From Psammoneis japonica (taxonomy: Eukaryota): 64,000 nucleotides of DNA. The notes under the pieces are model-generated. The model had not been told where the DNA came from, searched no databases, and worked only from the letters and a program-made list of their open reading frames with translations. The translations under genes and the position numbers were made by a program. Below, piece after piece: positions 1 to 50,800 of this stretch. The stretch covers positions 679,138 to 743,137 of the forward strand of contig QPGO01000006.1 in assembly GCA_008632985.1 (NCBI GenBank), read 5' to 3'. Numbering within the stretch: the stretch's first letter is position 1; each line of letters begins with the position of its first letter.

Positions 1-1746
1 GGCAATCACCATGTGCTGCTGTCCATCAACTGGCAACACCCCCTGACAATTGTTTTCAGTTGCACCAGTGCTTGGCAACAAACAAAATGGGTGCAAACGG
101 GTGAGAAAATGGATGCAGGTGAGCACAATTGGGTGCAAATTGGGCACAACTGGGGTCACTGTAAAAAGCCAACAATGACCACACTCCACCAAAAAGCTTT
201 GCAGGAGTGCTCAACAGTCAAATGTGTTGCTGGGTTAAAAGACATGTGTCATTGTCAAATGCCCTGCAGCTGTTGTGAGTTGTCTTCATTCAATGGCAAA
301 TTTCACAACTGTTTGACATCATGTGCCCAAGTTGTGTCCAGTTTGTGTCCATTTTATTTGACCTTGTTTGCAGCCATTTGTGCAACAGTTGGGGGTCAGC
401 AAAAAATCCACATTGAATGTGATGCCATGCCATGATTTCAGTCAGACCCACCATTTTACATTTTTGCACACACTCTTGCACAACAGTGTCTCCCAACTTC
501 TCTCTCAACCTGACCTGCAATGCATGATGGTGCTGCATGTTGGAAGAGCTGTGTCAGCCCACAACACAGATGCTGCCACAAAGGCAAGCCACTGGCATGC
601 ATGCAACACCATCATGCACTGGCACAATTCACAAGGTCATCAGTTTTCATCACTTTCCCATTCCATTGCACTGCCACTCTTCTGTCCACAACATTGTGCA
701 ACGCATTTGTGGTGTCAGCATCATGTTTGGGGACAAAATTCCACAGCCCATCACATGCAGGGGAAATTTGATGCCAACTGCAATGGGAAAAGATCATCAT
801 TTTGTTGGCTGAGTCAATCAAGCTCAAGTGGCTTGGCAAGAATTGTTTCAATCAAATGGTTTGCATGGCTGCAGGCTGTGACACCATGGGAACTGCTGCC
901 ATTTGAGGTGTGCTTTTGCACTTCTTGTTGCCCTTGTTCTTTTGCTTCTTTGACAGAATGCTCACATGCTTCTTGCCCTCTTTTAGCTCCTCAACACAGT
1001 TGAAGAGTTTTTGGCTTGGAGCAAATGTGTGCAGTCTGATGTCACTGACCTTGAACACTGCAACCTTCTCCCAAGTCTTTTGATCTGGCATCTGGAACTC
1101 ATCCACCACTCAGTCATCACAAGTCACACAGCACTTGTTTTTTGTGTCCTGCAGGCCAAGGACATTTGCCATGGCTTTGTCCAATCCAAGCTGCATGTCT
1201 CTTAATCCTGGTGTTGTGCAGTCTTCATGCACTGGAGTGTCTCCTGCATCAGTTGACAGGTCAATCTTGATCCTTGCTGGCTGCATGTTGTGCACTGCTT
1301 TCTGACTTGCCACCATGCCAAGGGCAGAGCCATTGTCAAGGATGATCTCATCCAAATTGATGCTTGCATTGGCTTGAATCATGCTTGCCTCTGGTCTCAT
1401 GGCAACCAGCTGCATTCTGTGCCATGCAGCACCTCTGCTTCAGCCAGAACAGGCAGATTTTGATTAGATCTGGTGGTGTTGATGCTCACATTGTTGCTGT
1501 CCACCAATGAATTGTCAACATTTGTGCCTTGCATCTGTGCATGGCTCTTTGCCCTGACGTCCATTTTTTTTTTTTTCAACGTTCTTTCACCAAAATTGTC
1601 ACAAGCAATGTCACCTCTGTGGCCACATTCTGGGGACTTGTGGCCCTTCATTCCACAACAGTGACACATCAGTTTGTCACTCTGGTTGCTCTGTTGAGCA
1701 TGACTCTGGTCCTTCTGGATCTCTTGTTCAGTGTTCCAGTTGCCGC

Positions 1747-1781
<35 letters not shown>

Positions 1782-2740
1782 GTTGTTGTTGTTGTTCATT
1801 CCTGTCATTTTGGTTTTGATCATTTCTTGCAGAGGCACTCCATTGTTTGAGAAGATTGTTGTCCTTTGGATGGTCAAGCAGTTTGTCCATCACCTTGTCT
1901 GGGGTTCAAGCAGCAGGCATCCCAACCCAGACTGCAGTCTCTCACAAAGCTCTTCTTCAGGCTCTTGCAAAAGTGACCATCACTGTTCCCCATGAGCTGG
2001 TGCATTGTCCATGTCTCACATGTGGACACTCTCATGTCTTTCTGCTCCACATCATCAGCATCCGTGTGCTCCTCAGCATTGCAAACAAACACATCCTCTG
2101 GCATCTTGTCTCCCAGTGCTTCTTTGGAAGCATCTTGCTGGTTCTTGAATCTTGGCTGGTGGTCATTTGCTGGTGTTCATTGTCTTGTTGTCTCACATCT
2201 GTGATTCTCTTGAGGGCACCTTTGTGAGTGCATGGAACAGGACTCGACCTCTCAATGAGTCAAATGTGAGGGTCTGATTTGCAGGATCACCTTGCTTGCC
2301 ATCTCTGTTTCATCTGCTTGAAATGGCAGTTGTTCAAGATCTTGGTGAGTGCAGCAGTGTTGTCCTCTTCCAACTTCTTGATCTTCTTGTGGCAGTCATC
2401 ATGATCTGCTTTGTGCTGCATTTCCAGTCCTTCATCTTTGCTTTCTTTCATTCATCTGCAGAGTTCTTGTCATTCTCTCATCTTGTGGGGCTGTCTTGGA
2501 CCCCTCACAGATGGGCATTTTGGCCTTGAAGTTCCAGGGCTTCACATCTTGCATGGATCTTGCCAAGTGTGTGCTTTGATTGCACTCTTGCTGTGTGCAC
2601 CGGGCAATCTTTTCCTTGACTTTCTTGAAGGTTGCATTGCACCAAGAGTTGCTGTTCAGTGATGAAAGGTGGAACTTCATCTCAGCCTGACCGTGAAAGT
2701 GTTTCTTGTCATCAGTCTTCCTGCTCTTGTTCAATGACTT
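1..2740 (-). mobile_element. Heavily decayed Ty1/copia (CoDi-like) retrotransposon relic: gag, zinc knuckle, protease region
   Basis: Minus-strand fragments contain a CX2CX4HX4C knuckle (CHCCGMKGHKSPEC, ORF 1397-1669), a copia protease-like IILDNGSA...IDLSTDAG motif and AMANVLGL (ORFs 1110-1415). Many stops and frameshifts. TpA and CpG are nearly absent. Confidence 0.75.
1747..1796. repeat. (GTT)n / (AAC)n microsatellite inside the gag relic
   Basis: About 16 GTT units with one extra-T interruption. Confidence 0.9.
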
Positions 2741-2791
2741 CCATCACCCCTGCTGCAGTCATGTTCTTGGTCTGGACAGCTCTCTTGTCCT

Positions 2792-3346
2792 GACGTGTTC
2801 CAGTCCCAGGTGACGCACAAAACGACAATCGGATTTTGAATATAATTTATGTATGTTTTAGTGTATAAAGCATTTTAATAAAAACACTTAGACGGATTGA
2901 CTTTTATAGGCTTCTAGAGTATGGACATTTAAATAGTTTTTTGAGGGGTATTCAAATCGTCATGGGATATGTATCATAAACTTCCTCAGTAGACTCAATA
3001 CTGATTGTACGTCAGTAGATTTATACTGAGATTTTTTTGTAGGTAGAAAACCTACCAAGTAGCATCGTAGAAAGATATATTTAGGTAACATCAAAATAAC
3101 GGCAATATTTTCGCCGAAAATCTTCCGTTGTGTTACGAATCTTTTAACGCAATGAAAAACATAGATAGCACAATAACAATGACATTGCAACACTCACACG
3201 AGTCTTGTTAGTGTTGCAAAACATTTATATTTGTATAAATCTATACTTTTGGTGGTGAAAGTTCGATCGTAAGTTAGGGACCGCGCAAAAATCGCGCAAA
3301 TGTCGTTTTTGTGCACGATTTGGTTCACGTGCGGCTGGAACACGTC
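2792..3346. mobile_element. 555-bp AT-rich non-autonomous DNA transposon (MITE-like) with imperfect TIRs and a 4-bp TSD
   Basis: Left end gacgtgttccagtcccaggtga; reverse complement of the right end gacgtgttccagccgcacgtga; a subterminal gcacaaaa(a)cgaca is also shared. tcct flanks both sides (2788-2791, 3347-3350). No coding capacity. Confidence 0.8.
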
Positions 3347-4200
3347 TCCTGCAATCTCCTCTGCTGCTGATTGTGCAGGTTTTCTGTCATCTTGGCATTG
3401 GTGGTGGTCTTAAAGCAAATGAGTGCCAAATGCAGTGCTTCTAACTCTTTGGAGTGAGTGTTGAAGCAGCAAGTCAATGTTGCCAAAAGGGAGTCGAACA
3501 AGATCTCCTGTGCCACTCAACGCACTTGCCTTCTTGGCAGCCTGTTGTGTGAACCATGCAGCTGTGATGACAGGTGTCTCTCAATGCTGTCTGACAATTT
3601 TGCAAACCAAACAATGATTCACTCCAAAAAGTGAGACCAAAACACACGCAGATGGTGCTGATCTCATCGCAGAAGGTCACATCAACCAACCACATCAGGG
3701 TCAACACATCTTTCTTTTCAACATGTCTGGGTCACACAACGCGTCATCTGGGTCTCACATCTTGGTGTTCCAACACAAGAAGTGACACACCCTTCATCCC
3801 AAGGGGAAATGTTCTTTTTTTCTTTGGCTGGAAAGCCAGCTCACAAAAGAGTGTTTTTGCATGAAGCCATGTGAGCTTTGACACTGCCGACAAAGCACAC
3901 AGCAAGTTGGTCACCGAGGTGCCACTGCCACTTGTTGCTCCTTGGCAGCTGGCCATTTGATCATCACCCAGTCCATTGTGAAGCATCATGTTGACACTGG
4001 CCCCACTTGTCAGGAGTCAAAGCAGGCAAACAAGAGGTCTTGATTTCCAAATTTGAGGCATTTTTGAAAATGCAAATGTCTCAAATTAAAAAACCCAGGA
4101 ATTTCTAAAAATCTGAAATGAATTGTTTTCAAAATGACGGTTTTTTTTTTAGCAAAAATGACAGCAGTGCAGCTGTCGTTCGCACTGCTCTTAGACGAAA
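3347..4200. repeat. TpA/CpG-depleted decayed repeat, family not recognised
   Basis: Same compositional signature as 1-2790. Ends near a small hairpin agcagtgc-N11-gcactgct at about 4163-4189. Confidence 0.55.
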
Positions 4201-4375
4201 TCAACTTAAGAATGAAGGGGCCTTTCGCTCGTACCTTTGTTTGTTCGTAAGTGTTATTTCTAAACTAGCAGCGTCGACGTGACACTGTTTGCCACTTTAT
4301 TTTCTTGATAGTGTCGGTGGACTGGCTTCGTCCCTTTTTTCCGTGATGCAAACGATTTTTGGGGTTGCATCGTCG

Positions 4376-7243
4376 CTACCAAAAATTATCCTCTTCTTCT
4401 TCCAAATCTGGTTCTAATAGTTGCGCAGCAGTCGGTGCTGGGTTCGCCTCATGCTGTCCCGGTTGGTCATGATCCAGTTCTACGAATTCGTCGTGCACAA
4501 AGGACCCAGGATGAAGCGACGATGATCTCATCGCCGGGAGGGAACTAGACAAAGAAGCACCCTCTACTGATTCCAGAATCGTATCCTGAGTCGAGTTTCT
4601 GCGAAAACGTGGCTTATCCGCAACACCCGCTATGTTCTTCTTGCCGTGGCAGCTCGTGCTAGTAGTACTACTAGTGCTTGTACTTTGGATGGAACCACAG
4701 ACAGCGAGCAATCGGAGTGGGAGTTTGATGAGTAGCATGTCCATAGCATTCCATAAAAAGAGGAGCCCAGTACATGCCGTCATGCCTGCAATCGTTATGG
4801 TCAAAAAGTGTTCAATCATCCGAAAACCGACCAACATTCCCACCGCCAACAACGTATTGGATCCAATGAGAATGGAGATGGAAATCCATCCTACCTTGAC
4901 GCGATCTTCGACTTGGTGGTTTGCTTCCTTGCTGTTCTTTGTAGTAGTCGTATTCATGGTAGCACCACTGCAACTCGAATCTTCGGATGATAATTCTTCT
5001 TTTGTTGCCGCCTCCTCCCCCGCCTGGTGGACTTGACGGTTGCCCCACGAAAGATCGGAAATGCGCGCGGTGGCGTAGGCAGGAAGCCACACATAAAACC
5101 AAAAGGCAGACAATAAGGCAAAGGGGAGCGTCAGGAATATAATCTTGGCCGATCGAAACCACTGGTAGCCATGATGGGTTTTTCTAGACAAAACGATGCC
5201 GCCCACGAATGCAGCAACATAGGGCGCCACCCCAAAGAAGATTAGAATTTTCAAAAACACGGGGAGACCGCCCCATCCCAACATGACGGCAGAAGCGATT
5301 GCGACACATTGCATATAGAGCGCTGTAGCAGTGTTCAGCACGACTGCCACCGCCCATGCAATGGGATTAAATGAAGAGAAAGCATCTCCATTCGTGGCTC
5401 GAATTGAACGGGGTCGATGTACGATGAGGAACAACGCATAGATTGCCAAATACGCCGCCACAACAACAGAAGCAATCCAATGCATATCGGAATCATCATC
5501 TTCGCCCTTGGCCACTTGTTGCAGGGCTGTCGAATTCGTGCTAACTATATAGGGTGTCACGAGAATGGCAACGCACAATCCAACCGCCACAGTGGCGGCA
5601 CCCACCAACCGTACCATCACTCCGCTCAGCAGCTCGAGCGCAAGATAGGTACGGACAATGCTTTTCTTCCACCAGCTTGATGTGACTCGGCGATCCAACC
5701 TTTGTCACTACCACTGGTGTGTCTGTCTTCGCTGCTGTTGTCGCTATGATGATGCTTCTTGCTCCCACAGAAGACCCAATACGACGCAAGGAAGGCTCCG
5801 TTGATCCAACGACGACGCTGTCTTACGAGACGCGCCATTGGTTTTTCAGCGTCATAATAGAAGCACGCATCGTGTACATAGGAGACATGTGGTTTCACGG
5901 AGTCAGATAAGCCCGGTAGGTCTTTGCACTCCTCCTCCGATCGAAACGTAAGAAGGACCGGTGGAAACCGATCTTCAGCCAGTTGTACATTTCCTAAGAT
6001 AATTCGATCCATCATGTTCTTGTGAACATTAGTATCGTCCAAGGATTGGTTGCACAAGTCAAAATAGTCTGACATGACATTGCGACGATGAGGGCTGATA
6101 TTGATATCATCAGCACTATCCTTGTCGCTGCTATTGCTACTACCACTTTGGTTGGTCATGGTATCATTATACTCGGTTGTGAGTCCAAGATGTGCTGTTC
6201 GATAGAGGCAACATGGACCCGGAAGGACAGTTAAAAAGCCCATCGATTCTTGTGCCGATCGCATGGTGGCTTGCGAGATCTGCAGACATACAAAATTGTT
6301 TGATCAGCAAGCAAGCGCAATGATGTGAGTTTTGGATGGAAATGAGACACACAACATTTGCCATAGCAGTACTACCTACCTCCATGTCGTAACGCTGGAT
6401 TTGTCGCAAGGCAAATGCCGATGGATCCGAGAAGGCCTCGCCAAATCGCGAAGAGCGGTTATCCCCTTGTTTTTCGGCCGACATGACACGCATGAAGCCG
6501 GTTAAGGCCGAAACAGATGGCACCTGATCCATACGTTCAATTAACAACCGTAAACAGTGGTGATCGAAAATGATTCCACAGTCTGTGGCCCAGGCAAATT
6601 CAGCCATGGGAGCATGGGCCTGCATCCACCACATATGTGAATTGATTTTACCCTGATTGTGCCGTTTGAGAATTAGCGACAAGTGGACTTGGCCATCCTC
6701 CATCTTTGTGCGACGATCGGAACGAATTGGAGAATGTACGGCTTCAGGAATCCTCACAATGAGCGTGTTGCAGCTGCTCGTTTCGGCGCCTTCTTGCTTG
6801 GTGAGAAAGCTGTCGTCTGGACAACTGTTTGAACCTGATCCAAGTTCCAGGTCGGCTGGATCTTGATCGCCTGGAAATACAATTTGAAATTTGTCTTGGA
6901 GAAAGGCTTTCATGCTTGGTGTAATCTGTTTAGTACCATCCATGACAATGCAAACCTCGAGAATAACGGCGGAGTCTTGCTGGCTGCTGAACTGCTGCCA
7001 GTACAACGATTGCAAGGTCCGATCCAATTCTTCGTATTCTTCATTGTAACAGCAGATACAAACTGACACTACTCGATTCATTGGCACTTGATCGTCGCAC
7101 AGACCACCGCTAAAGTACCCTTGCCCTGCAATCGGTGACATCTCGGACCATCTTTCGCATTCCAACGACAAAGCGAAAGGCCCATGCTCTTTGTCTTTCT
7201 CCCGAGTGTCGGCGTACGAGGTGTAGCTTAACTGGGAGCTCAT
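4376..7243 (-). CDS. Chitin synthase (GT2 family)
   Basis: Motifs in canonical order: CCYNEE, VMDG, KRHNQGKINSH, ATDCG, LTVLPGPCCLYR, LAEDR, QRRRW, followed by several TM segments. GT-AG intron 6379-6280 joins RYDME to ISQATMRSA. One frameshift near 5680 (GWIAESH / SWWKKSIV). Confidence 0.92.
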
Positions 7244-7933
7244 TGAGTGATCGATAAAGTGATATCGACTAAAACAATGATGAATGATGGCTCCCACTTT
7301 TCAAGATAGTATCTCGTCTTTTGTGCGTGTGCTTGTTTTGATGGTCCAGGGCGACTTTTACAATACCGTATTTATGTTTCGTATCCAATCATCAGGGATC
7401 TTTTGCAATTGTGAGGTTCAAAAAGCCGGAATTTGTGTTGTTGTGGGTGACGTGTTGAGGGTTTTACGAATAGATACTACTTAGACCACATCTTGGAACG
7501 GACAAAACAGTTATGTCTACTGAAACTCGTACTGTAAAAAACTTCACGACTACAGTACATAAAGTAGATAGAGATAGAGACGATGTCCGTCCAATGATGA
7601 ATAGTCATCCCCCCAGTAAAGTAAGTAGTATGCTGTATTTAGAGAAATCGCTCGGGCAGTCATTTGTTTGTGCTGGAATCCTTTTTTATTTATTTAAAGA
7701 GTGCGAACGTGAAAATACCGTAGTCATAATTATTTTCCGTTGTGTATAAGCTACGAAGGAATCACAGTATGCCCCGTAGAAGCCGTATGCGCGGCTACGA
7801 GCACCTTCATACCTCTCGAGCCGAAACAAGCAGCAGCAGGCTCATTCTTTACGTTCAACGTACTTTTTCTTTCCATCTTCAATCTTCACCCAATTGCAAG
7901 ACCCCCCCGCCCCCCGCGTGTTCAGTGGTCACG

Positions 7934-10477
7934 ATGACGACCAGCAACGAGGAAGAAACGGCTGGTAACGGCGATACCAAAGACGTGTGGAACGAAAACG
8001 ACACCAAGTGCCAAGAGCTTGAAGAGGGCGCCTGTAACATCAGCGATCCCAAGAATGATGTAAGTGACAAAAGTACCGGCAAGAAGCAGCCCTTTTCTAC
8101 TCGTCGGTTGTGCGTCGCTGCTGTAGCATTGGTGGCAGTCATATTGCTTTGCATTGGATTGGGTGTCGGACTGTCACGGGATGGAGGGAGTCAGGATGAA
8201 AGCCAAGCGACTGTCGACGACGATGTCTGCAAGCGCAATAACGATTTGACGTCCGTACCACCATTCAACGATGATTTTCCTCCCTCCACGACGTCGCCGA
8301 TTGAATTACAAAAAACGCCCATGTTGGTTTCGATCGGATTCGATGATAATGGTCGATCGAATGGGATGGAATGGGTAATCAATGAGCTGGCCAAGAAGTG
8401 GAATACCGCGACGTCTCCGCCGTTGCAGTTCACGTTCTTTCAGACCACCACGTATGCTACCGACGTGCATTACGAGGAACCCGTTAACGTACGTCGTGCG
8501 TGGAGAGCTGCCTATGAACAAGGACATGAAATAGCGCTCCACACTCACACACATCCACATGGTTCCGAGTTTTCTACGGATCAGTGGGGAGACGAGTTCA
8601 AAATGTGTCACGAGACACTCACCCGAAGCTGGGAGGAAGGAGGGCTCGGCGTGGACCCCAAGGATATTTTGGGGTGGCGAGCTCCCTACCTGGAATCGAA
8701 TGCAGAAATGTTTGAAGTACTCCATGAAAATGGTGTATGGTATGATAGTTCCATCTACGATGGATTTCAGCCAGAACAAGATGGACGCAGCCATCAGTTC
8801 CCTTACACTACAAACCATGGATCAAAGCCCGCCGGATTTCCTATTAACCGATCCGGAATCTGGGAATTACCGTTACATGCATTGATCATCCCCCCCGACG
8901 ATGTAGCGGAGAAATACAATTTTGTTCCGGGCCTGAGACAACGATCAGCAGCAGCCATAAAGGTCACGAGTTTAGGTGCGTTTACCGGTTCTAGCAACAA
9001 TGGATTGCTATGACACTATGCTCATTTTTTTTTCGTCACATATTCAATTCTCGTCTTCCAGACTGGAACTTTTTTGCCGAATACGCCATGACAGGGCCTG
9101 AATTTGTGGCTACGCTCAAATACAATCTGGATCTACGGCTTGAGGGCAATCGAGCACCGTTTGTGTTTGGGGCTCACTCGGAGTATTATGCCACCGACAT
9201 TCCAAAACTTTCCAGCGACGAGATGTTCTGCGGAAGTAGCTGGACCGACGCAAATACATGCAAGACCCCATGTCCGGGTGGAACCGATTCTGAATGTCCC
9301 GACGGAGAATCCTGCTTTGCAAGTATCACGGTGGGTGTGAACCCAGTTCCAATACATCTTTCTGTGGAACGAGCTGGGCCGACGCAAATACATGCAAGAC
9401 CCCATGTCCGGGTGGAACCGATTCTGAATGCCCCGACGGAGAATCCTGCTTTGCAGATGTCACGGTGGGGTGTGAACCCAGTTCCAATACACTTTCTGTG
9501 GAACGAGCTGGGCCGACGCAAATACATGCAAGACCCCATGTCAGGGTGGAACCGATTCTGAATGCCCCGACGGAGAATCCTGCTTTGCAGATGTCACGGT
9601 GGGGTGTGAACCCAGTTCCAATACACTTTTCTGTGGAACGAGCTGGGCCGACGCAAATACATGCAAGACCCCATGTCAGGGTGGAACCGATTCTGAATGC
9701 CCCGACGGAGAATCCTGCTTTGCAGATGTCACGGTGGGGTGTGAACCCAGTTCCAATACATCTTTCTGTGGAACGAGCTGGGCCGACGCAAATACATGCA
9801 AGACCCCATGTCCGGGTGGAACCGATTCTGAATGCCCCGACGGGGAATCCTGCTTTGCAGATGTCACGGTGGGGTGTGAACCCAGTTCCAATACACTTTT
9901 CTGTGGAACGAGCTGGGCCGACGCAAACACATGCAAGACCCCATGTCCGAGAGGAACCGATTCTGAATGTCCCGACGGAGAATCCTGCTTTGCAGATGTC
10001 ACGGTGGGGTGTGAACGTAGGCTCAATACATTTTTCTGTGGAACGAGCTGGGTCGACGCAAATACATGCAAGACCCCATGTCCGGGAGTAACCGATTCTG
10101 AATGCCCCGACGGAGAATCCTGCTTTTCAGACGTCACGGTGGGATGTGATCTCAGTTCCAATACATTTTTCTGTGGAACGAGCTGGGCGGACGCAAATAC
10201 ATGCAAGACCCCATGTCCGAGAGTAAGCGATTCTGAATGCCCCGACGGAGAATCCTGCTTTTCACATGTCACGGCGGGGTGCGGGAACGAACCCGATCCC
10301 CTATGTAGCAATGGCAGAGTTCGTGACGGAGTGTTCCCCTGTAGTACCGCAGAAGAGCGCCGTGCGGCGATGGAAGCGTTCCTTGCGTATGCACTCTCCA
10401 AGGAGGAGGTTCGAGTAGTTCCAATGAGAAGTGTTATGGACTGGATGCGCGATCCTGTTCCGCTCCAGTGTCTTTAA
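7934..10477 (+). CDS. Membrane-anchored polysaccharide (chitin-type, CE4/NodB-like) deacetylase with eight inserted Cys-rich modules
   Basis: N-terminal TM (LCVAAVALVAVILLCIGLGVGL). CE4 motifs IGFDD, HEIALHTHTH, GWRAPYL, WYDSS, IWELP, NRAPFVFGAH. Intron 8976-9061 gives KVTSLDWNFF. Single-base slips in the first repeats break the frame. Confidence 0.88.
9225..10285 (+). repeat. Coding tandem array, 8 x 135 bp (45 aa: FCGTSWADANTCKTPCPGGTDSECPDGESCFADVTVGCEPSSNT)
   Basis: Units recur at about 9225, 9360, 9494, 9629, 9764, 9899, 10034 and 10169. They are nearly identical, with six Cys per unit. Confidence 0.95.
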
Positions 10478-11099
10478 TAGGACGGAGTGAATTGTCATAT
10501 TGTTAGGTAGGGTTGCGCTCAGCGTTGATTGAGCGGGCAATGGTAGCGGTTCATCGCAGAGGCTAGATTATATTGCGTTGCTTCCAACAGTTAAGGTATA
10601 AAGAAGTTGATAGTATTTTATCCTATGTCGAGTGCCTTCTATCCCATTTGTCTCTGACTAAAGCAAGTAGCGCTTGTTTTCTCCATCCCTAAATACTTTT
10701 CAATTAAGTTGATTCGCCGTGGTCCTGTCAGCTATGCAAATGCGGAAAAGCTAAAACTGCCAATACTAAGAGCCACCATGAATTGCAAGGCGTTTCCCGA
10801 CGTTGCCGTGCAGGGTCCCCAAGTCGAGGCTAGATTCTTGTTCGCCTCATCTTTATTCATCCAAAGTCGTTCCATCGAAAAAAACAACCAGAGTGCTCAG
10901 TCAGGAGCATCAGCCACTAGAGGAGAGCGAAGAGTCAGAGAGCGATAGAGGGCAATCGTCCAGCAATTGCCACGTTGTAGGGCCCATCTACCAGCATCTC
11001 CGATCTGCGCAGAAGACTTCTTCTACTCTCTAGCTAGAGAGTAGACTCTCTACTCTAGCTCTAAGTAGAGTAGCATCGGTAGAGACCAGTGCACATTTT

Positions 11100-12928
11100 T
11101 TAGATGCGCGACATACACGACGAGCGCGAGAAGTCGGCACAAACACGTCGCTGACGAAACCAGCACCCTCATGTTGCACTGGTCATCTGGTCATTGTTTT
11201 CATTCTCATTGTCTCACTTGCATCTCCCACACTGTGGCTTCCTCTTGTCAAGAAGGCTGCCTTTTTTTAGAGGATTGCGATGCACAGGCCAATGTGTGTT
11301 TTTTGTATGGTGTGAGTGAGCTTGTGCAAATGAGCAAGAGACAAAATGGTTTCTGCAGAAAATTGACTGGCTTTGGTTGCTGCAGCCCCAGCACCCGACC
11401 CACCACTTCTGCACTGCACCCTCATTTTTGCCTCTACACCAAAGTCATGCTGGCAGCAGCAAAAAAATGAGAAACATCAGCAGCCAAGCTGTCTTGCACC
11501 TCTCCATTGCCATCATGCGGGAGCGTCTTCAGGGCAGAGTGTTGAGCTTCTAGATGCCACACTTGGCATTCTGTCAAACTGTGCCACCTCACAACATGAT
11601 TCAGAAATGCTGCTTGAAAAACACTCCATGGTGCTTGGATTTCATCTGCCAAAGACCTGCAGAGCAGCAAAAGACAAGAGGGAACAAGAGGAGCATGATG
11701 AACCATGCTGTCTTGCATTTTCATTGCTGCTCTGCTGCAGTGGCTGGCTTTCAAGGGTGTGGTGCTGAGTTTTTTGGCACTGTGTTTGGCACTCCGTCTT
11801 GTGTGTTGCCAACTCACATGCTTTAAAAAACAGGCTTTGCACCCCACTGTGGTTGAAAACCAAGAGTCAAGTGCCCAACCTTCATGGTCTTCTTTTTTTT
11901 CAGCAAAGCTCTGCCACCAGCCACTGAGTTTCCTCTTCATGCCAAGTCATTGTGTCATGGAAAAAGAACCACACAGAGAACAAACACCAGGTCTGCAGAG
12001 CAACATTTCCTGGTTGTTGCTGCTGCCAGGTGCAATCACAGCATGAGAAGGGGGGGTTGGGGGGGAGAGTCAGACTCAACTAAAAGGAGTGAATGCACTG
12101 ATGTTGTGCAGGAAAAGTCAAAAAAGCACACCTTGAAAGTGCACTTTAAGTGTGCTCAAGCATGTTTGTGACTCTTGCACAGTGTTCTGCGGGGTGCTGG
12201 TTCACAGGCATTTTGTGCCAGCACACTGCTGCACACAATCTACAGCATTGCCATGCATGATGGGCTGATGATTTGCGTGTGAACAAACATGCAGAATTTG
12301 TGCCACAACAGCTGTTGGTTGACTTGCACATGATGGCATTTTTCACAAATTTTCATGTCATGCATGTGACAGAGTCAAAAAGAAAAAAAATGCAGGTTGT
12401 GACAAAAGTGAAAACCAAAAAATGTCGTTGAGCTGTGCGTGGGGGGAGATTGGGGAAGACTGCAGCAGCTGAGGTCAGCACCTTGTCAAATCAACTTTGC
12501 ATTGCTGGGCAGCTCCCAGTTGGCTGTTTTCAACTTTTTTTGGGGAAATGCTCAATCGCCTTCATGGAAATGTGTGGAAAATGTGCCAAGAACCTCCAAC
12601 CTTGTCTTTGGGGGTGCTCTGTTTGCAATGAAATGGAGCCAAATGACAAGCTCCATCTAGAAAGTGGGCAAATCTGAGAGGGTTAAAATGGCAGAGAAAG
12701 ACACTGTGAGCCAGAGAAGGGCATTGCAAGAAGATTTGCAAATGTGCAGCACTGGGCACTGATCGACAAGACCAAACACCACAGGGCTGTGGTGTTTGGC
12801 ATCAAAGGTGCTCTCAGCCTGCCATTTTTGTTTGGGAGAGAGTTGGGCAGGTTGGTGTGAAAATGCAGAAAGGAGTTGGTGAAGTGTTGCTAAAAATGTG
12901 AGCCAAGCCAACAATGTTGAGACAACGC
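11100..12928. repeat. TpA/CpG-depleted decayed sequence; left part of the island into which the copia element inserted
   Basis: Compositional signature. Continues at 20043-20800 on the other side of the TSD. Confidence 0.6.
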
Positions 12929-13206
12929 TGACAGAAATTGAAGGCAAATGGCAAGAATCCAAACAATGACTCCTTGCTGCTGTCTAAATGGCAGATGAGT
13001 CTCCGCTCAGAGACGGTCACAGGAGCCAAAAGATGTGTGAGTCGGCACAATCGGGCTGCTGTTGTCATTCTTGTGAGCCGTGTGGCTCGAAAGCAAACTG
13101 CGTCGCGTGCGCACGCATGGAACTAAAGAGCACACAAAACTGTGCGCGGCAAACTAAACAGCGCGCGACATTTTGTGCGCACCCAAATCCTGTTCAAATC
13201 CTGTCA
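12929..13206 (-). repeat. 3' LTR (278 bp)
   Basis: Colinear with 19765-20042; TG...CA termini. Confidence 0.95.
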
Positions 13207-16200
13207 CTCCCCAGTTTGCTTGAAGAGTCACAGAAACAGATTCAACTTCGGATTGAATGGAGTTCCAAAACATGAGGGGACGGAGAAGGTCCCAGATTTG
13301 GGAGCAACCCCAATGCTTGCTGAGAATGTCAGCAGGGTTGCGGGAGCCTTCGATGAAGTGGAGCTCAAGGTGGCCAGAGGCAATCGCCTCGCGCACACGA
13401 TGGAATGAGAGAGCGGTGTGTCGCTTGTGTAACTTGGAGTGCGGGATGGTGGCACTGTCCACAACCAACTTGTTGTCACCGAACATGCAACTGATGTCAC
13501 GGATCAGGACGCCAAGGTGACGCAGGGCAATGTGCAGGTCGACAATCTGCTCAACACAAGTCCTTGCGGCAACAAATTCAGACCCGAAGGTCGCAATCTC
13601 CATGGTGGCTTGCTTCTTAGAGAACCAATCAGCTGGGAATTTGTTGAGGAAGTGGAGCATTCCCATGACAGAGCATCCGGTGAGCATGCAATGATGCAAG
13701 TTTGCATCGACGCAGTGGGTGGCAGTGACAAACTTGCCAAGGGGTGGTGGAGCATCCTTCAGGATCATCTCCTCTGCGTCGCCTCACACGGAATGCATCC
13801 ATTCATGGGCCGGTGCAGGGAGATCCAAACAGTCGGACTCTTCCGTGCGAACGCGGAGAGCGCCGTGTCGCATCTTGGAAAGGCACCCACAGATGCATTT
13901 GGCACGATCCAAGTGGCCTTGACGGGGCGCAGCTCGGAAGCCAGACAGTGACATGATGGCCATGGCAATGTCAATTCGGCCAAGAGACACTGCCCATTGG
14001 AGGGAACCAACAAGAGACTGGAGCTGTTGAATGCCACTGGGCTCTGGCAGTTTGGAAGTGTCCAGTTCGGGGTGGTCACCCTTTTCCAGAGGGGACAGGA
14101 TGTTGGTGGCAGGTTTCTCCCCAAACAGTCATGTGTGGCTGTCGACCATGCATTCAATGCACTTGCACGGAGACAGACACAAGGTGCCATCAGGATCACG
14201 GGAGAAGTCGCAGCCCAGATGGAACTCAATCAGTCCCGCACCCTTGAGCTTGAACTTGCACTTTTCCGTGAGGGTGTCGACGAAAGATTGAGGATCCTTC
14301 ATGGCAATGGTGAGGTCATCCACACAAACGGCAGCACATTCGCAGTGGTCGCCGTTCCTGCACACCCAAATGTCGGGTTCGGCACGGCAGGGGAAGAAAC
14401 CTTCAGCTCGCAGGCAGTCGGCGAAGCGCTCGTGCCAGCGGAGACCGGAGCTGCGCAGTCCACACAGGGCCTTGTAGATGACAAGAATGTGGCCTTCAAG
14501 TTTGCCAAATTCGGGTCCAGCTGCAATGCACAGCTTCTCCTTGGTGGTGGCTTCAAGGCAGGCATTGCCAATGTTGGTGGCCCATGTCTCCAACTCGTTG
14601 AGTTCGGCCAGGAAAATCATCAGCCGAAGGCCACGAAGAGAGACTGCTCTGCAGTGATCACTGTCGATGGGTGCATCCGTGAGGTGTCCATCGGCTGCGA
14701 GTCGTGCCTTGTGGCGGCCGTCGTGTTTCACGTCGTGCACTGGGTGCACTCCGATCTTCTTGTGTCCTGCAGGAGGAGTGGAAGACTCGGAGGGCCCGCA
14801 GTCATGAAAGACTTCGTATTCATCGAGTTGGTCCATCTCAAGATTGGTTGCGTCTCCCCATTTGCGGTTGCCATTGCGTTCGTCTAGGGACATGGCGTGT
14901 TTGCAGTTCCGGGGAACTTTGCATCCGCACTTGTGGCAAGGTGCAGTGTGGAAGGAGCGAAGCTTGGCTTGGTTGGCCATGCGGAATGGCTTCTTCTGGC
15001 ACCTCGCGATGGTGCGGAACCGCTTCCAGCCATCAGTGTCGAGAAGTCCTTTCTCTCGTGCACAGATGGCGCAGGTGACAGGGTCGTCCTTGGCGATGAT
15101 GGCAAGAGGCTCGGACGTGATCTCCCCACTTTCCCATTCAAGCATGATGTTGTAGCTTGAGCCTTTCCAGGTTGGGTCATGAGGCTTCAGAGGTCCTTCG
15201 TGTGACACAATGCGTCGAAATTTCCAAACAGCAGTGTCTTCGTCTTCTTGCTCAATGTGATTCATGATGTCGTTGCAGGCCAGGACTTCCTTGCATTCGT
15301 CGTTGTTGACAGAGCAGACGAACTTGGTGAGCTCGGGGTTGCCGTTCACTTTCCATTCGTGATCCTTGACAGCCTTGATGATGCGAGCTCTGTGGCATTG
15401 TCCGTCCTCTTGTGGCTGCATGAGGAAGGTGTGTCCAATGATGTCTTGCGGATCGAAAACTGGCATCTTGGGTGTCCTGATCTGCCCATCAGGTGAATCG
15501 ACGGGGTTGTCGTCATGGTGAGATTTGATGATGGGTTCAGGTGGCTCCCCATCAGGAGGATCAAGATGCAGGTTTTGAACGGAAGGATCGGTGGCAGCGG
15601 ATCGTACGTTGGACCGGCAGAGGATCTTCTGAGTGTCGTCAGAAAGAATCTTAAAAGTCATCTGGTGGCCGACATGTTCCGCAATGCCAACAAAGCATCC
15701 AAGCAACTCATGGGATTCAGATGGCCAATCGGAGTCATCAAGGTGGAAGAACATGGGTTCCCACCAGTGAAAGCGAAGCAATGGGCTGATGTTCGGGGTG
15801 GAGCCAGTGAGGGTCTCGAGGGGCATGCGCCAGTGGAGACATGGGGACGCTGTGTGGTTGAGCATGAAGCAAACATGCATGAGCGCCAGCAGCCATGTGT
15901 GGGCAGGCGAACCGAAATGGTCCATGATGGTGTTCGCCATGCACTTCATGGTCTGGTGTCGGCATTCGGCAAAGTTTTGGTGTTGCTGGTGAGGCTCGCT
16001 TTGCCAGCTGGAGATGAAGAGGGCTCGTAGAATCCCGAGCACCTTGTTGCTGATCTCAACTTGAGCACGGTCGCTGATGAGTTTGGGTGGAGCACCGCGC
16101 TCACGGATCTGATCCTCGAGTGTGTTGACAAACTCTTTGTCGGTTTTGGTGCCGCAGACATCAGTGACGGTAGACTCGGTGCCAACAAACAGTTGGGCGC

Positions 16201-18832
16201 TGGTGCAACCAGAGTCGACGGCCGGGGTGTCGGCACAAATGGTGTCAGTGGCGACAGGCTCGTTGCGGCGGTGCACATTCAGGGCGGGGTTGGGCGATTT
16301 GCAGGCCTTCTTAAGGTGCGCACCAGCGGGCATGCGGGCGCATTGCGTGGTGCAGTCAAAAGTGCGACGGACCGCATCGGCAGGTGGGAAGCCAAAGCAA
16401 GGCCGAAGAGACTCGTGGGGGGGTCCTTGGGCTGCACAGTGCGCTCCGGGGGCGGAACGTCGTCATCCTTGGGGTCAATCGCGTGTAGATGACACTCGTA
16501 GAACACGTCGTCGTTCGGAATGAGATGATCATCGAGGGCGGACGCGTGATCGGCAGACAAGGAAGCGGACATGATGGCCTCGTTGACAACGACACGATGA
16601 CGGCAGTTGCCGCATTCGTCAAATGGGTTGGCAGTGGGATCGTCCTGCAGGTCTGAGATCGCGTCGTGCCACTGATCGTCATCAGTGACAGAGTGATCGA
16701 GGATGGAAGGGTCCCATGTGTCATCACCGGGCAAGGATGACATGTGGCAGGGTGTCCCATTCGTCGTCAGTGTGGGGCCGCATGGCAACACAAGGCAGGC
16801 CACCCTTGATGTCAATTGGGATGACATGGCCATCAGGAGTGGCGACACACTGCAAGCCGTTGGGCACCTTGACAGAGCGATCATTGACATCGTGTTTGCA
16901 CCATTCGAGCTGGCCACAGGAATGAATGGTCTTGCCCTTTCCCGTGTGTGCGCACTGATGGAGGATGGCGATGACGGGACCACGCTGTGTCTCAATGATG
17001 GCACCAGCAGTGACAATGGGGATGTCCACCAATTGATGGTCGTCAATGCCCTGAACGTCGACTTGGCGAGCGGTGTGTGCAATGACGTGAACGTCATCGC
17101 CAGCAATGCCGCCATTGGCTCCACGATCGACTGGAGCACCAGTGCGTGTGGAGCGATGAGCGGAGGCAGAGCAAATGACATTGTGGTCATCAACGCGGCG
17201 GCAAGTGCGGCCATTGAGTTCTGTGTCATCTGGAGGAGCAGGCGAGGTGGAGGGAGTGGCGGATGGGCCCGGTCGACTGGCTTTGGGGGCTTGGTTAGGA
17301 GACAACAGGCATTGCAGATCACCGGGTGGCAGTGGCTTGCGCTTGGTGAGATGTGCCAGAATGGGATTGTCTGAAGTGGCACCCACATTTGGAGTGGGAT
17401 CACCATAGTTAGCAAGAGTCATGTTGGGCAAGTTGACATCACCGTCACTCCCAAGTCGTTGGTCGTGAAGGTTCACCGCAACAGACTCATGCCAGTTGCC
17501 AGCTCGTGGGTTGCGAGGAGGCGGACGAGAATGCTCGAGGATGATCGCCTTGGAGGAATTGGGCAACGAATCCCAAATCCGTTGGTGGTCGGGAGGGAGA
17601 TGTTTCCATTGGTCGCCAGTGAGGCTGGGACCGCGGGCGCAGGCAGCGTCAGCCTGAAGGACGTCAATGTCGCTGTCGATGTCATGGAACACATCATCGG
17701 ATGGTTCCTCAGAGTGGACGTTTTGTGCGCACATGGCGCAGCGGGGAGCTCGAGGTGTCGTCTTGGGTTGAAACGTGCTGTCGCATTGAGCCGCCGCGGA
17801 GAGGAGCAAGCCACAACATTGATCGCATGTGAGGCTCTTGCCACTCTGTGTGCAATGTTGATCAGCTTGGTTCTTGACGGTGCGGAGTTCCTTGACAGGA
17901 TGCACGGCATTCTCGAGCATGATGCGCTTCTGTCCTTCAGAGAAGTGGTCACTGGCTGGGATGAGTGCCTTGCACCTGCGCAACTGATCCTGCCAATGAA
18001 GTGTGAACCCGTGGGTCGGACCTTTCCAAGTGCCATCACCAAGGCGTGCAGTGGTGAGGTGCGTGAGCAAGGTGGAGGACTCGACAGATGCACGGGTGGA
18101 GGTGAGTGCATGCTCAGACAAGGCACGGTGGACGGTCTGGGCATCAGAAGACCCCACATTTTCACGAATGAGGGCTTTGCCCTTGTTGGTGAGAAGGATG
18201 CGTTCGAAGACGGCGAACATGCACTTTTGCTGTTCAGCAAAGAGCAGTTTGTCTTCGGGGGTGGTTGGTTTGTGCGACGAGTCTAAAATGCACTCGACGT
18301 CTTGGGCACGGGCTTGTGCCACAAGTGAGGTGTGCCAAGTGTGCCACTGCTTGTCGGATTTGAGGGCCGTGAAAGCAGTGGGGTCACGCTTGATGCCTCG
18401 CTTGAAGTCTCGCACTGGGTCGCGTGCCTTGGTTGGGTTGGTGACATGCGGAGGTGCAAGAGGTGAGCTGCCGACAGACACAGAAGACATGCAGTCGGGG
18501 CTGAGGCGGCAGGCAAGGAACTCATCGTGTGTGAACAACGAGGAGTCATTGGCAACATCAAGCCCTTTGTGTGCTTTGACAATGTGCAGACCAACTAGAG
18601 CTGCTAACATGTTCACATGACCTCGGGGCAATGGGACCACATTGGTGCTGTTGTCACACTCAAGTGAGTCGATTTGGGAAGGTGTGAATGTGAACAGTTC
18701 TTGGCACGAGTCTGTGCCGTCATGGGTCAAAGCCAAACGGAGAGGGCTTCCAGCACCTTGGGCAAGCACAGTTCCAACAACATGCTCGAAACCATCAGTT
18801 TGTTGCTGACGAGTGAGAACCATGGCAGACAA
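13207..18832 (-). pseudogene. Degenerate gag-pol polyprotein (gag, protease, integrase, chromo-like segment, RT, RNase H)
   Basis: FKRGIKRD (gag), VDRGANGGIAG (PR), VATDT...SEPHQQHQNFAE (IN), DVKHDGRHKARL, KALCGL, AVCVDD (RT), DANL...ATFGSEF...NPADILSK (RH). Frameshifts and Tyr->Cys/His changes throughout. Confidence 0.93.
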
Positions 18833-19764
18833 AAGACGGCATCAGGACAAGCGATTTTGTCAGGACGCGGAGGCAGACTTGAAACTTGAGTGGAAATGGA
18901 CTTGGCTTGAAATGGACTTGACTTGAAATCTTCAACTGTCTTGAAATCAGAAGTTGCCAGGTTGTGCTGTCCCGTTCGTTGTCAAGTGCTAAACTTCCCA
19001 TCCGGTCTGTAGAGTTGTGCCGGCACGTCCGAACCCGCAGCCAGCGGCACTTGGGGTTGCTTGCGAGCGGAGTGGCGGGTTGTAAACCCCTGCAGGTGAG
19101 CTGACTGGAGGTGGACAAAACCCCCGAACCGTTCTTGTTTTATGTCGGTTGGATTTCCCGATCAGGCTGGCCAGTTGGCGCAGGCATCAGGCGCTGTGGA
19201 CGAACGAACAAATGTGGGAAAAACACCCTCGCCCCAACGCAGGCTGCAATCGCGGCTGCTTGCTCTCACAGTCATCCTCATGGACCCAGCAGAACTGCAG
19301 AGCACCAGCAGTCCGGGGCAGATCAGGTGCAATGGACTCGGTGTGCTTGTAGAGTGGTGGCAAAGCCGCAGTCCAAAGAGTGGGTTCAAGTTCTTGGCCG
19401 TGAAGACACACACACACATGTGTCTTCAGCGACAAAGATCTTGGAATGTGTGGGGTTCTTGACCGTTAACCGTTGAATGGGTGTGTCAAGGGATGAGGAT
19501 CAAGGACAGACTTGGACACAACCGTTGAATGTACGTCTTCAGCGACAAAAGGCAGTGTGATCAATCCAGACATCCAGCGGCAAGGAGACTTGACGGTGAC
19601 GTTAAATTCCTGCTGATGCCTGGTGTTGAATGCGCGCAGACTTGCCGATGTACGTAGAATGTGTGTGTGCAAAGGTCCATGCAGAATTGAAGTGGCATCG
19701 TCGGTAAATCAACGACGACGATGGCGGTTGCTCAATGGGTTGACAATGAGCAAGACTGTTAATC

Positions 19765-20042
19765 TGACAGAAATTGAAGGCAAATGGCAAGAATTCAAAC
19801 AATGACTCCTTGCTGCTGTCTAAACAGCAGATGAGTCTCCGCTCAGAGACCATTGCAGGAGCCGAAAGACGTGCAAGTTGGTGCAATCGGGCTGCTGTTG
19901 TTGTTCTTGTGAGCCGTGTGGCTCGAAAGCAAACTGCATCGCGCGCGCACGTGCGGAACTAAAGAGAACACAAAACTGTGCGCGGCAAACTAAACAGCGC
20001 GAGACATTTCGCGCGCACCCAAATCCTGTTCAAATCCTGTCA
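19765..20042 (-). repeat. 5' LTR (278 bp)
   Basis: Colinear with 12929-13206. On the minus strand it is followed by the candidate PBS gattaacagtc. Confidence 0.95.
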
Positions 20043-20254
20043 AACGCAGTGCATCACTCTGATGCTGCTGTTCTGTGGAACAACAATTTTCAGCAAATGA
20101 AGCTCCTCCCTGGCTTGTTTCTGCTCTGGGTCAACTGCAATGACACAATTTTTTCAAATCTGAAAATGGAGAAGCTTGTCACAAGTTTTTGTGGGCTGCT
20201 TGGCCCATTTTTTGTGGCGCCAAAGAGGCATCAAAACACAGCTGTCAGCATGCT

Positions 20255-20775
20255 GGCCATGGGCTGAAGAACAGAAGATGACCATGAGATGGGTCTTGTG
20301 TTTTGATGTTGTCATGTTGTCTCTCTTGGTGTCGAGAAAGGGCCCAAATCTCTCCGTCGTGCTCCCCAGCTGCTGCGAGTCTTTTGAGCCCTGCATGTGA
20401 CCCACACTTGACTCAAAAATTTTGGAAGAGCTGGCTGGACTTTGACCCCCACCAGAGCCACAAAAATGCACAAGATTTGGGCTTTCTCAGTCTCCCATTG
20501 TCCAAACCAGCATCTTGTGAAAGCGCAGTCTGCGAGTGCATTGTTCGTGGCATGGGGGGCATCTGACCCCCGCCCATCTGAGGGAGCCAACTTTTTGCTG
20601 AGCATCTTTGTCACATGAGAAGGCATGAGGGATGAATTTTAGTGACAGCTCTGCAACTAACGCGACCCTGTGCTTGCGACCCCAAAGTTGTTTTGGGAAC
20701 TTGGCACTGGCATGATGTCAGTCGGTTGATGTGTGCATTTTGTTGAAAACGGGGGGTTTGGTGAGTGCGGAACGG
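20255..20775 (+). repeat. Dispersed repeat, copy 1 (homologous to 52785-53215)
   Basis: Shared blocks such as atgggtcttgtg, ggtgtcgagaa, actttga-cccc-c-agagccacaaaa, aactaacgc, cttgcgac and gcatgatgt-agtcgg. Confidence 0.85.
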
Positions 20776-20968
20776 GGTTGGGCCTCATAGCAGCGTCGCC
20801 AAAACAGGAGCGTCGTCGGGCGGACAACCGCGCAGAAAAAAAATAAAGCGATAACACATCATAACACACAAGATAGACACGAGGCAAGGATGATGACACT
20901 TCCTTTCCCGCGCTACACCTGTTGTTGTCACTTCCCCGGAATGGACCAAGAGCTTGTCGTCATCTACA

Positions 20969-35897: not shown

Positions 35898-36314
35898 TTA
35901 ACCTGCTAGTTGCAATATTACAGCTAGCTAGACTACGTAATCGTGCTTCGATCTTCCCATACAAACCTGCCTGTTGGGAATGCGATCTTAGGTACTCAGC
36001 AACGCAACTTCAACTTTCGATTTCTCTCCACCTCAACGTCTTCCCTGTTTTCATTAGAATGCAGGGAGGCGAGAATGGGAGAATTGGAAATGTTGATGGG
36101 ACTGCTACATAAAGCCGTGGTCGCGGTTCACGATAGAAACCAGAATACATTATTTTTGTACTTGAATAACAAATACATGGCGCTAGAAAGCACTCCACAA
36201 ATCTCTTTCAAACGCAATTCGCCTCATCACATTTCTCCCTGACACCCTTACCCCCCTTCCCATGCCTTTCATCAACAAATCACGCTGCAAAAGCAACCAC
36301 AACAGCGGTTTCCC

Positions 36315-38590: not shown

Positions 38591-39291
38591 GATTATTAAT
38601 ATTGCGTCCTTTTGTGTGTGTGTGTGACTTGAAGTGATCAACAACAGAAAACACCCTGTAGTTGTTCTGTGACTCAGATGTGATGCGTGTGCAATTTGCG
38701 ACGAATGCAAACGACGGGGAAAAATGTGACGCCAGTTTTGCTCGCAATGAGTCAGATTTATGTATTATACAAATATTGAGAAATGGATTCACGTAAACAC
38801 GTCACGAGCTTCATTATCATCGTACAGTACGGGTTTACCGGTACCAGTTGCAGACGACTGCGAATTCTCTCCTCCAGTGCAGTAGCTCTAGAACTACAAT
38901 AAGGCTCTCTAGAGCTGTCAGCTATAGCGCAGTAGAGCCTGATTACCTAGGTTTTTGAGAAACTGCACGTCGACAATAGAATCAATCAAAACACAGCAGC
39001 AGGACAGAGGTCGCCCCTGAAGCTGCAAAGCCGCAACATTTGGGCTGCATACATAACTTCTCTCGAGACAAGCTTCGTATAGGTAAAACATTTGGCACAA
39101 AAAAGTATTGAAGCGAGAGCGACCATGATGCACGTCCCTTGTAAAGGTCGACATGACGTGAGACAAAAGAACAGCAAGTGGCAACTGATTGAATGCTCTA
39201 GACGAGCGCGCCTAGTGCCAACGAGTGGAGAGAGGAAGTTCGTTGCAGAAGACCACGATCATCTAAGAGAAGATTCAGGGTCAGATGGCAA

Positions 39292-50579: not shown

Positions 50580-50800
50580 AATGCTGGCTCCAAGGGCAGC
50601 ATCCACGTGGTCCCGTCACCCACGCCTGCAAGACAGAAGAAACAAGCATCGCTGGGAACAACCCCCCTCCTCAGATGCACAAGGTCATCAAAGTCTGCTT
50701 TTCCTTCCATGATGAGACAGCGGAAGCTTCCAAAATGTTCAAAGTGGCCTTTGAACAAACGTTTCATCTAGATGGATTTCGTTGTCGAATCCTGAGATCT
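50580..50800 (+). pseudogene. Mutated fragment paralogous to the gene at 53505
   Basis: QMHKVIKVCFSFHDETAEASKMFKVAFEQTFHLD versus QMRMLERYFSIFDGTPDAAAKFKAAFEETFHTD. Both copies have a CAA-rich 5' leader. Confidence 0.75.

Follow-up and report, generated by a model that had tools for sequence, protein, structure and literature searches.

Flanking bases and the survival of TpA in transposon DNA of a diatom: a probable mutational signature

A mutator that erases the dinucleotide TpA from foreign DNA has been reported once before, in an unrelated alga. By the account given in a preprint on Bigelowiella natans, giant-virus and virophage DNA integrated in the genome of this organism undergoes A:T to G:C hypermutation that is restricted to TpA (Mettrop et al., bioRxiv 10.64898/2026.01.13.699255). 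The same source describes the hypermutation as ongoing and episodic, at about 6e-7 per site per generation in living lines, and reports that coding sequences poor in TpA and rich in CpA and TpG are enriched in reverse-transcriptase and DDE domains (bioRxiv 10.64898/2026.01.13.699255). Here we describe a comparable erasure of TpA in a 64,000-nucleotide stretch of the Psammoneis japonica genome (assembly GCA_008632985.1, contig QPGO01000006.1, positions 679,138 to 743,137; hereafter the window, whose own numbering is used throughout), in which two Ty1/copia retrotransposons and several tracts of repeat DNA are affected, and we consider which TpA sites have survived it. As TpA erasure is known from one other alga, B. 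natans, the part that appears to be new is a rule that relates the survival of a site to its flanking bases. No such rule is described in the main text of the B. natans preprint (bioRxiv 10.64898/2026.01.13.699255), and our full-text search of the literature for TpA hypermutation in Bigelowiella, diatoms and transposable elements brought up no further account of such erasure.

What the window shares with the B. natans system, as far as the preprint describes the latter, is the conversion of A:T to G:C at TpA only, yielding TpG or CpA, its occurrence in foreign or repeat DNA, and the sharp boundaries of the affected regions. The two cases differ in lineage, the nearest named relatives here being diatoms, and in their targets, which in the window are long terminal repeat (LTR) retrotransposons and old repeats, mutated to near saturation and often deprived of CpG as well. 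By analogy, the process would also recall the repeat-induced point mutation (RIP) of ascomycetes such as Neurospora, as both would consist of DNA-level, repeat-directed and dinucleotide-specific transitions that ruin transposons. RIP makes TpA from CpA, whereas in the window TpA is destroyed and CpA and TpG are raised to observed/expected ratios of 1.5–2.3, and the TpA excess by which RIP is recognised is not seen.

Our reading, to which we assign a probability of about 0.8, is that the TpA-poor islands of the window are transposon and repeat DNA in which a post-integration process has converted TpA to TpG or CpA nearly to saturation, at a rate set by the flanking bases.

TpA-poor islands and the sites that survive in them

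Dinucleotide observed/expected ratios in 400-bp windows delimit six TpA-poor islands with a total length of 24,155 bp, in which the TpA ratio is about 0.05 and the CpA/TpG ratio 1.5–2.3. They hold 114 TpA, as against 1,401 in the 36,845 bp outside, that is 4.7 versus 38 per kb, or a roughly 8-fold depletion. The largest island (11150–20600; 48 TpA) contains the first retrotransposon, copia 1, and shows TpA ratios of 0.00–0.32 and CA/TG ratios of 1.2–2.3 across its 400-bp windows, while the last (60150–64000; 25 TpA) is occupied by the second, copia 2. The remaining four, in which a Pfam search gave no match, lie at 1–2600 (7 TpA; TpA and CpG lost; no recognisable coding domain), 3400–3950 (a small island with 2 TpA), 42850–47300 (14 TpA; TpA and CpG lost) and 49550–52800 (18 TpA; CpG partly lost). 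Erasure is confined to mobile and repeat DNA: the remainder of the window carries ordinary genes and has TpA ratios of 0.3–1.0, and the gene-bearing segment 20900–42600, with its Pfam domains, keeps TpA at these values.

Copia 1 (12929–20042, minus strand) is a complete, TpA-hypermutated element inserted into older repeat DNA. In keeping with a Ty1/copia identity it possesses an RVT_2 reverse transcriptase domain (E 6e-17), LTRs of 278 bp with TG..CA ends, and a 5-bp target-site duplication, AACGC, that can be read directly at 12924–12928 and again at 20043–20047. In element orientation, the 3' LTR lies at 12929–13206 and the 5' LTR at 19765–20042, both on the minus strand. Among the matches listed, 120 homologues of 54–65% identity were found, the tblastn alignments covering 13166–18835. 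The older repeat DNA on either side of it (11150–12923 and 20048–20600) has lost both CpG and TpA. Copia 2 (60150–64000, minus strand), a TpA-hypermutated Ty1/copia element unrelated to copia 1, combines an RVT_2 domain (E 9e-29) with gag_pre-integrase and SH3_retrovirus domains, and extends beyond the window. Among relatives with a named source, those from the diatoms Fragilaria crotonensis and Fistulifera solaris are nearest to these mobile elements.

Counts of the tetramers NTAN inside and outside the islands reveal that depletion is unequal across contexts (ten strand-collapsed classes: chi2 142.3, 9 degrees of freedom, p 3.5e-26). The form YTAR, in which a pyrimidine precedes and a purine follows the TpA, makes up 68 of the 114 TpA in the islands but 239 of the 1,401 outside (odds ratio 7.2, p 5e-22), and it is enriched in each island, with 4/7, 2/2, 27/48, 11/14, 12/18 and 12/25 in their order along the window. 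The ratios of inside to outside density, computed from 113 of the 114 sites as one touches an island edge, descend from CTAA (0.60), TTAA (0.47), TTAG (0.39) and CTAG (0.29) through GTAG (0.23), GTAA (0.19) and TTAC (0.09) to 0.04 or less for CTAC, GTAC, every ATAN and every NTAT; survivors of the types ATAA, ATAC and ATAT number zero in the islands. The same order is obtained when TpA is expressed as a share of the TA, CA, TG and CG steps with equal flanks, and it is thus independent of flank composition.

An earlier note on this DNA had claimed that the survivors are mainly ctaa, ttaa, ttag and ctag, and this is borne out not only over the islands but also in the range 11100–20800, where 30 of the 53 TpA are YTAR (CTAA 12, TTAA 8, TTAG 6, CTAG 4). 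The others there are GTAG 9, GTAA 3, GTAC 3, CTAC 2, GTAT 2, ATAG 2, ATAC 1 and TTAT 1, with no ATAT found among the TpA of this range. The claim that gtctaaa, aactaaag and aactaaac persist in both LTRs of copia 1 also stood. The TpA at 12985–12986 (in TCTAAA; partner at 19821), 13124–13125 (in ACTAAA; partner at 19960) and 13155–13156 (again in ACTAAA; partner at 19991) are kept in both copies, and these three CTAA sites are the sole TpA of either LTR.

For a quantitative description, each TpA was treated as two half-sites, a half-site being the bases that follow the A when read on either strand, and survival was fitted with a Poisson model that adds up, for every site, what its two half-sites contribute to log survival. 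At +1, A or G is over-represented among the survivors, and at +2 A is strongly so (61% versus 25% outside). With host DNA as the baseline, the +1 term is overwhelmingly significant (likelihood-ratio chi2 139, p 6e-30) and the +2 term adds to it (chi2 96, p 1e-20). In the +1-only model the negative log survival per half-site amounts to 0.37 for A, 0.54 for G, 1.60 for C and 3.15 for T; in the two-position model the corresponding +1 values are -0.34, -0.06, 0.85 and 2.15, and those at +2, relative to A, are 1.05 for C, 1.06 for G and 1.67 for T. The protection afforded by A at +2 is seen within each of the classes with A, C or G at +1 (odds ratios 3.5–4.5, p <=3e-6). The half-sites surviving most often are TAAA, TAGA, TAAC and TACA, and those never or almost never surviving are TATA, TATC, TACT, TACC and TATT. 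The ranking of the 16 half-sites agrees between the islands of 1–19763 and those of 42850–64000 (Spearman 0.91, p 1e-6).

The earlier note had also inferred a target of about 5'-TAY-3'. This stands in so far as loss does rise with a purine before the TpA or a pyrimidine after it, the additive model of two half-sites reproduces the tetramer counts, and six sites hit independently in the two LTRs (see below) are all outside YTAR. It falls short in that T at +1 has a far stronger effect than C, and that +2 matters about as much as +1. TAY is therefore no more than approximate as a target: the clear ones are TAT and TANT, with TAC in between.

The mechanism that we propose is a process acting on genomic DNA, after integration, which would convert TpA to TpG or CpA at a rate governed by the two bases after the A on each strand, equivalent to the two before the T on the opposite strand. 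A T at +1 (TAT/ATA) or at +2 would lead to the fastest loss, and a C at +1, or a C or G at +2, to an intermediate one; TA followed by R-A would be refractory, and TA followed by C-A or A-C less so. A site would persist only if both of its half-sites were poor substrates, and for this reason survivors would be mostly YTAR, often in the form T-Y-T-A-R-A. We infer that such a footprint is that of an enzyme that modifies bases and is selective for a short stretch of local sequence, rather than that of repair.

The hexamers T-Y-T-A-R-A, whose A is followed by R-A on either strand (20 copies over 23.3 kb of island DNA, 29 over the 36.8 kb outside), show no depletion relative to host DNA, and they are the least depleted class, not an immune one. 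A related observation concerns TCTACA on the coding strand, the commonest survivor in the copias, whose nine copies appear as TGTAGA on the plus strand (14475, 16486, 19010, 19350, 62091, 62474, 62706, 63449 and 63953). Together with three TTTACA they amount to 12, against about 6 expected from relatives, and the opposite orientation is left once; the effect of A at +2 explains most of this, and a residual strand effect is possible. An overall strand factor was tried and is not needed (p 0.75, two copias against the baseline of transposon relatives introduced below), and the excess of RTAR over YTAY on the plus strand of both copias is due to the +2 effect, T-A-C-A being fairly refractory. A comparison of TA loss with CA/TG gain by flank was set aside with no conclusion drawn, being too dependent on the baseline and complicated by mutation of the flanks themselves.

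Most CpG has gone, too, from four of the six islands. The CpG ratio is 0.00–0.25 at 1–2600, 11150–12800, 42850–47300 and 49550–50500, and the two copias keep 0.5–1.2. The decay of CpG to TpG/CpA and that of TpA to TpG/CpA are two processes that feed the same products, and the loss of CpG can be used as a rough clock for the islands. Densities of RTAY, mixed and YTAR sites per kb, which are 11.15, 20.38 and 6.49 outside, fall to 0.31, 2.39 and 2.86 in the islands that have kept CpG (2.8%, 11.7% and 44% of the outside values) and to 0.10, 0.80 and 2.00 in the older islands that have lost it (0.9%, 3.9% and 31%). The remaining share thus rises from RTAY through mixed to YTAR, in the order that unequal rates of emptying would produce.

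Timing of the changes and the base that changed

The two LTRs of copia 1 differ at 25 of 278 positions, and 12 of these differences form six adjacent pairs in which TG in one copy faces CA in the second. The six pairs stand in the contexts ATAG, TTAC, GTAA, GTAC, TTAT and GTAY, none of them YTAR, and each is an ancestral TpA that was hit independently in either LTR. The other differences comprise eight one-copy CpG decays, two further transitions and three transversions; opposite double decay of a CpG, which would mimic a TG/CA pair, is expected at about 0.2 sites as estimated from the eight single decays. As LTRs are identical at integration and these now carry opposite products, editing of a transcript before integration is ruled out as the main source, and the TpA changes arose after insertion, at the DNA level. 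The survivors common to both LTRs have, by the same comparison, been retained and not re-created.

These observations bear directly on the proposal that an ADAR-like enzyme edited the retrotransposon transcript before reverse transcription, the context being the neighbour preference of ADAR. The elements are indeed retrotransposons, the clustering of A to G changes in repeats resembles ADAR hyper-editing of repeat double-stranded RNA, and U at -1 is preferred by ADAR as noted in the B. natans preprint (bioRxiv 10.64898/2026.01.13.699255). The changes here are, however, post-integration and on both DNA strands, as seen in the six LTR sites with opposite products and in the occurrence of both CA and TG products on one strand (26 His and 46 Cys codons at former tyrosine positions, see below); moreover, the non-retroelement flanks at 11150–12923 and 20048–20600 and the islands without domains have been erased as well. 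Finally, TAG is among the refractory contexts of the window, whereas it is the favoured ADAR triplet, G at +1 being favoured by ADARs. We regard transcript editing as extremely improbable.

The coding regions of the copias offer a view of sites that have already been lost. Tyrosine columns were defined as those in which at least 50% of the homologues (120 for copia 1 and 78 for copia 2, tblastn alignments) have Tyr, leaving out those now reading Phe, Trp, Leu or stop (nine columns of copia 1, six of copia 2). Such columns now encode 31 Cys, 15 His and 2 Tyr in copia 1, and 15 Cys, 11 His and 1 Tyr in copia 2; altogether 72 of 75 have become TGY or CAY, with 46 Cys and 26 His, from which it follows that a TpA was formerly present. 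Other conserved residues are mostly retained, the A:T to G:C changes being restricted to TpA, and the Arg to Cys/His replacements in 11 of 62 conserved columns of copia 1 are the mark of CpG decay.

Because Tyr codons are always N-TA-Y, they can tell whether the sensitising flank adjoins the base that was converted, which survivor counts cannot. In copia 2, Tyr columns preceded by a purine gave 11 His and 6 Cys, and all 9 preceded by a pyrimidine gave Cys (Fisher p 0.0024); the +1 rates derived from survivors predict the direction of conversion with an area under the receiver operating characteristic curve (AUC) of 0.83 (p 0.002). Histidine, which records a T to C change on the sense strand, thus appears only after a purine, as is predicted if the A of TAY is converted, this being the T of RTA on the other strand. 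A distal-flank model, which would have the more remote base of the TpA converted, was rejected on its worse fit (pooled log-likelihood -59.6, versus -47.1 for the proximal model). Post hoc, and in small numbers, G at +2 was associated with conversion of the A on its own strand (26 Cys and 8 His) and C at +2 with the reverse (4 Cys and 10 His); of 18 Tyr sites with exactly one half-site reading T-A-C-G, 15 have their product on the strand of that half-site.

A possible agent, though we place it short of an even chance, is a DNA adenine deaminase of the TadA/ADAT type acting on the A of 5'-T-A-Y, for which TAR would be a poor substrate and hence the source of the survivors. According to the account consulted, bacterial TadA edits a U-A-C-G motif (PMC10027721), and with TadA and ADAT2-ADAT3 the window has in common a T or U 5' of the A, in part a sensitising pyrimidine at +1, and an A to G product (PMC10027721). 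In the window the T at -1 is absolute, the direction of conversion in copia 2 is the one predicted for the A of TAY, the lone T-A-C-G half-sites mostly point to the strand carrying the product, and in a half-mutated copia relative from a metagenome, taken up below, 9 of the 11 mutated TAC codons listed have become TGC. The B. natans preprint, for its part, proposes an ADAT2-like candidate (bioRxiv 10.64898/2026.01.13.699255).

Several features fit such a deaminase poorly. The natural substrate of TadA is described as an RNA hairpin loop (PMC10027721), and its motif has C at +1 and G at +2, unlike the window, where T outweighs C at +1, and where at +2 T is favoured above C or G and A protects. 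Among survivors G at +2 is no better than C as a mark of loss, and TACG survives more (0.10) than TACC or TACT (<=0.017), a comparison that CpG decay confounds. Flank and direction are unrelated in copia 1, and by the same account fungal mRNA editing of the ADAT type favours an A or G at +1, contrary to the pattern in the window (PMC10027721). The UACG motif of the TadA-type origin that had been suggested before is matched at -1 relative to the A and in part at +1; at +2, G is not specially favoured among survivors. What a search of the literature on DNA adenine deaminases and their sequence context yielded was limited to cytosine deaminase toxins and engineered editors.

An attack on thymine would leave an identical footprint in the sequence, every count being equally readable as RTA with the T mutated. 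Such chemistry in 5'-R-T-A might take the form of TET/JBP-type oxidation to 5-hydroxymethyluracil, or of excision followed by misrepair, leading to T to C changes. Hydroxymethyluracil and base J in dinoflagellates and kinetoplastids have indeed been reported, for the most part, at TpA. Against this, 5-hydroxymethyluracil pairs with A and is weakly mutagenic, and the two 2-oxoglutarate and Fe(II)-dependent (2OG-Fe(II)) oxygenases of the window are of the prolyl-hydroxylase-like kind (PF13640 and ShK), not Tet_JBP. We consider a thymine-directed mechanism unlikely.

Transposon baselines and the weight of the flank rule

Since host DNA is unlike the elements before their mutation, a second baseline was drawn from related copia loci. 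Eighty such loci were collected from metagenome contigs, and the 62 with a TpA ratio of at least 0.6 (286,429 bp) served as the baseline; they are at most 70% identical to the window elements in DNA, with no DNA-level ancestor among them, and hypermutated copies are under-sampled because the search patterns contained Tyr. TpA density in these 62 relatives is 54.9 per kb, as against 4.7 and 6.5 in the two copias. With this baseline the 56 survivors of the two copias retain both effects (+1, p 2e-11; +2, p 7e-8), the contributions being 0.14 for A, 0.07 for G, 0.50 for C and 2.52 for T at +1, and 0.73 for C, 0.84 for G and 1.70 for T at +2.

Repeats within the window are too few for a repeat-based comparison. 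The copia 1 family is very abundant, with summed word depths over 12900–20100 of about 46,000–150,000 versus about 56 in single-copy flanks, in a public run that includes this DNA. Its differences to the window copy are for the most part transitions, with 204 A to G, 165 T to C, 137 G to A and 112 C to T changes beside 128 transversions; 40 of 777 rows of these differences were compared, about ten of them bearing on TpA, too few to establish ancestral states.

The TpA density of the relatives bears on the suggestion that no mutator specificity is involved, and that the pattern reflects native avoidance of TpA, selection on survivors such as stop codons or signals, or re-creation of TpA in YTAR. 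In its favour, at the codon boundaries of copia 1 (13166–18835, minus strand) that precede conserved A-starting codons there are 122 C|A, 9 T|G and 3 T|A, and elsewhere T makes up about 36% of third-position pyrimidines; silent loss of TpA could already have accumulated in the active copia 1 lineage. Such boundary sites were excluded from the rates, as they need an assumed third-position T share. Moreover, 18 of the 40 aligned copia survivors are unchanged Leu YTA codons. On the other side, the homologues contain 3.1–3.8% Tyr but of 75 Tyr columns 3 still read Tyr in the window, the relatives have roughly 55 TpA per kb to the handful found here, the same rule holds in islands without coding potential and without CpG, and the LTR survivors are common to both copies. 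We take an absence of specificity to be very improbable.

Several results weigh against the flank rule as formulated above, or limit it. The effect of C at +1 varies with the baseline, from 1.60 (host) to 0.50 (transposon relatives), and the two copias hold 2 T-Y-T-A-R-A against about 8.9 expected from the transposon baseline. In copia 1, Tyr columns gave 5 His and 15 Cys after a purine and 10 His and 16 Cys after a pyrimidine (p 0.36, AUC 0.45), such that the direction expected if the A of TAY is converted is seen in copia 2 and not in copia 1; with both copias combined, flank and direction are not significantly associated (Fisher p 0.23), and inclusion of the +2 rates predicts the direction no better (AUC 0.57, p 0.17). 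The counts come from one 64-kb window near saturation, and the rates of the most sensitive classes are lower bounds.

Further points on this side come from the half-mutated copia relative, L074, a 2,759-bp metagenome contig with a TpA ratio of 0.31. At 30 strongly conserved Tyr columns it has 14 Tyr, 9 Cys and 6 His, and none of the other loci listed has more than one Cys at these columns. It lacks YTAR enrichment (12 of 49 TpA, versus 19% in the baseline), and its TAC codons are mutated in 12 of 17 cases, mostly to TGC, as against 5 of 15 for TAT. As a single short contig from another organism in an environmental sample, it indicates that at least one further organism undergoes TpA mutation of this kind, possibly under a different flank preference, and that the +1 ranking could vary with lineage or stage.

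Surroundings of the islands and significance

The host genes outside the islands encode a short-chain dehydrogenase, the two prolyl-hydroxylase-like oxygenases, a kinase and a PhyH protein. The oxygenase genes are neighbours (34757–35782 and 36243–37640, both on the plus strand) with 69% DNA identity over about 920 bp; both products are prolyl-hydroxylase-like (PF13640, with a ShK domain in one) and no link to the mutator was seen. The named relatives of the short-chain dehydrogenase (37811–38764, minus strand) are mostly bacteria of the Roseobacter group, at about 60% identity, its best matches reaching 70–74%; the one diatom protein among the named relatives, from Mayamaea, matches at 58%, and the gene may have come into diatoms from bacteria. 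Outside the islands, a tandem array at 9226–10281 consists of about eight 135-bp units that are 90–94% alike; it was considered as a before/after series and rejected, being a TpA-poor repeat with no TpA mutation.

For the interpretation of such DNA, the flank rule makes of a compositional oddity a mutational signature, one that can be compared with the new mutations of the Bigelowiella study and tested on oligonucleotides with candidate deaminases or thymine-modifying enzymes. The emptying of the sensitivity classes could serve to date and rank insertions. There is also a warning for annotation, in that the loss of TAA and TAG creates artefactual long open frames in the repeats of such genomes, and changes of Tyr to Cys or His mark dead elements.

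A bolder proposition, which we hold to be doubtful, is that diatoms carry a heterochromatin-directed TpA-editing enzyme of four-base specificity that acts as a reverse RIP to disable transposons. The specificity of this putative enzyme would be for T-A, with T preferred over C and C over purines at +1, and a base other than A at +2. If diatoms do possess such an editor, the flank fingerprint would provide a means of finding the enzyme and of linking it to the Bigelowiella system, and the enzyme itself would be a natural A:T-to-G:C editor of chromosomal DNA.

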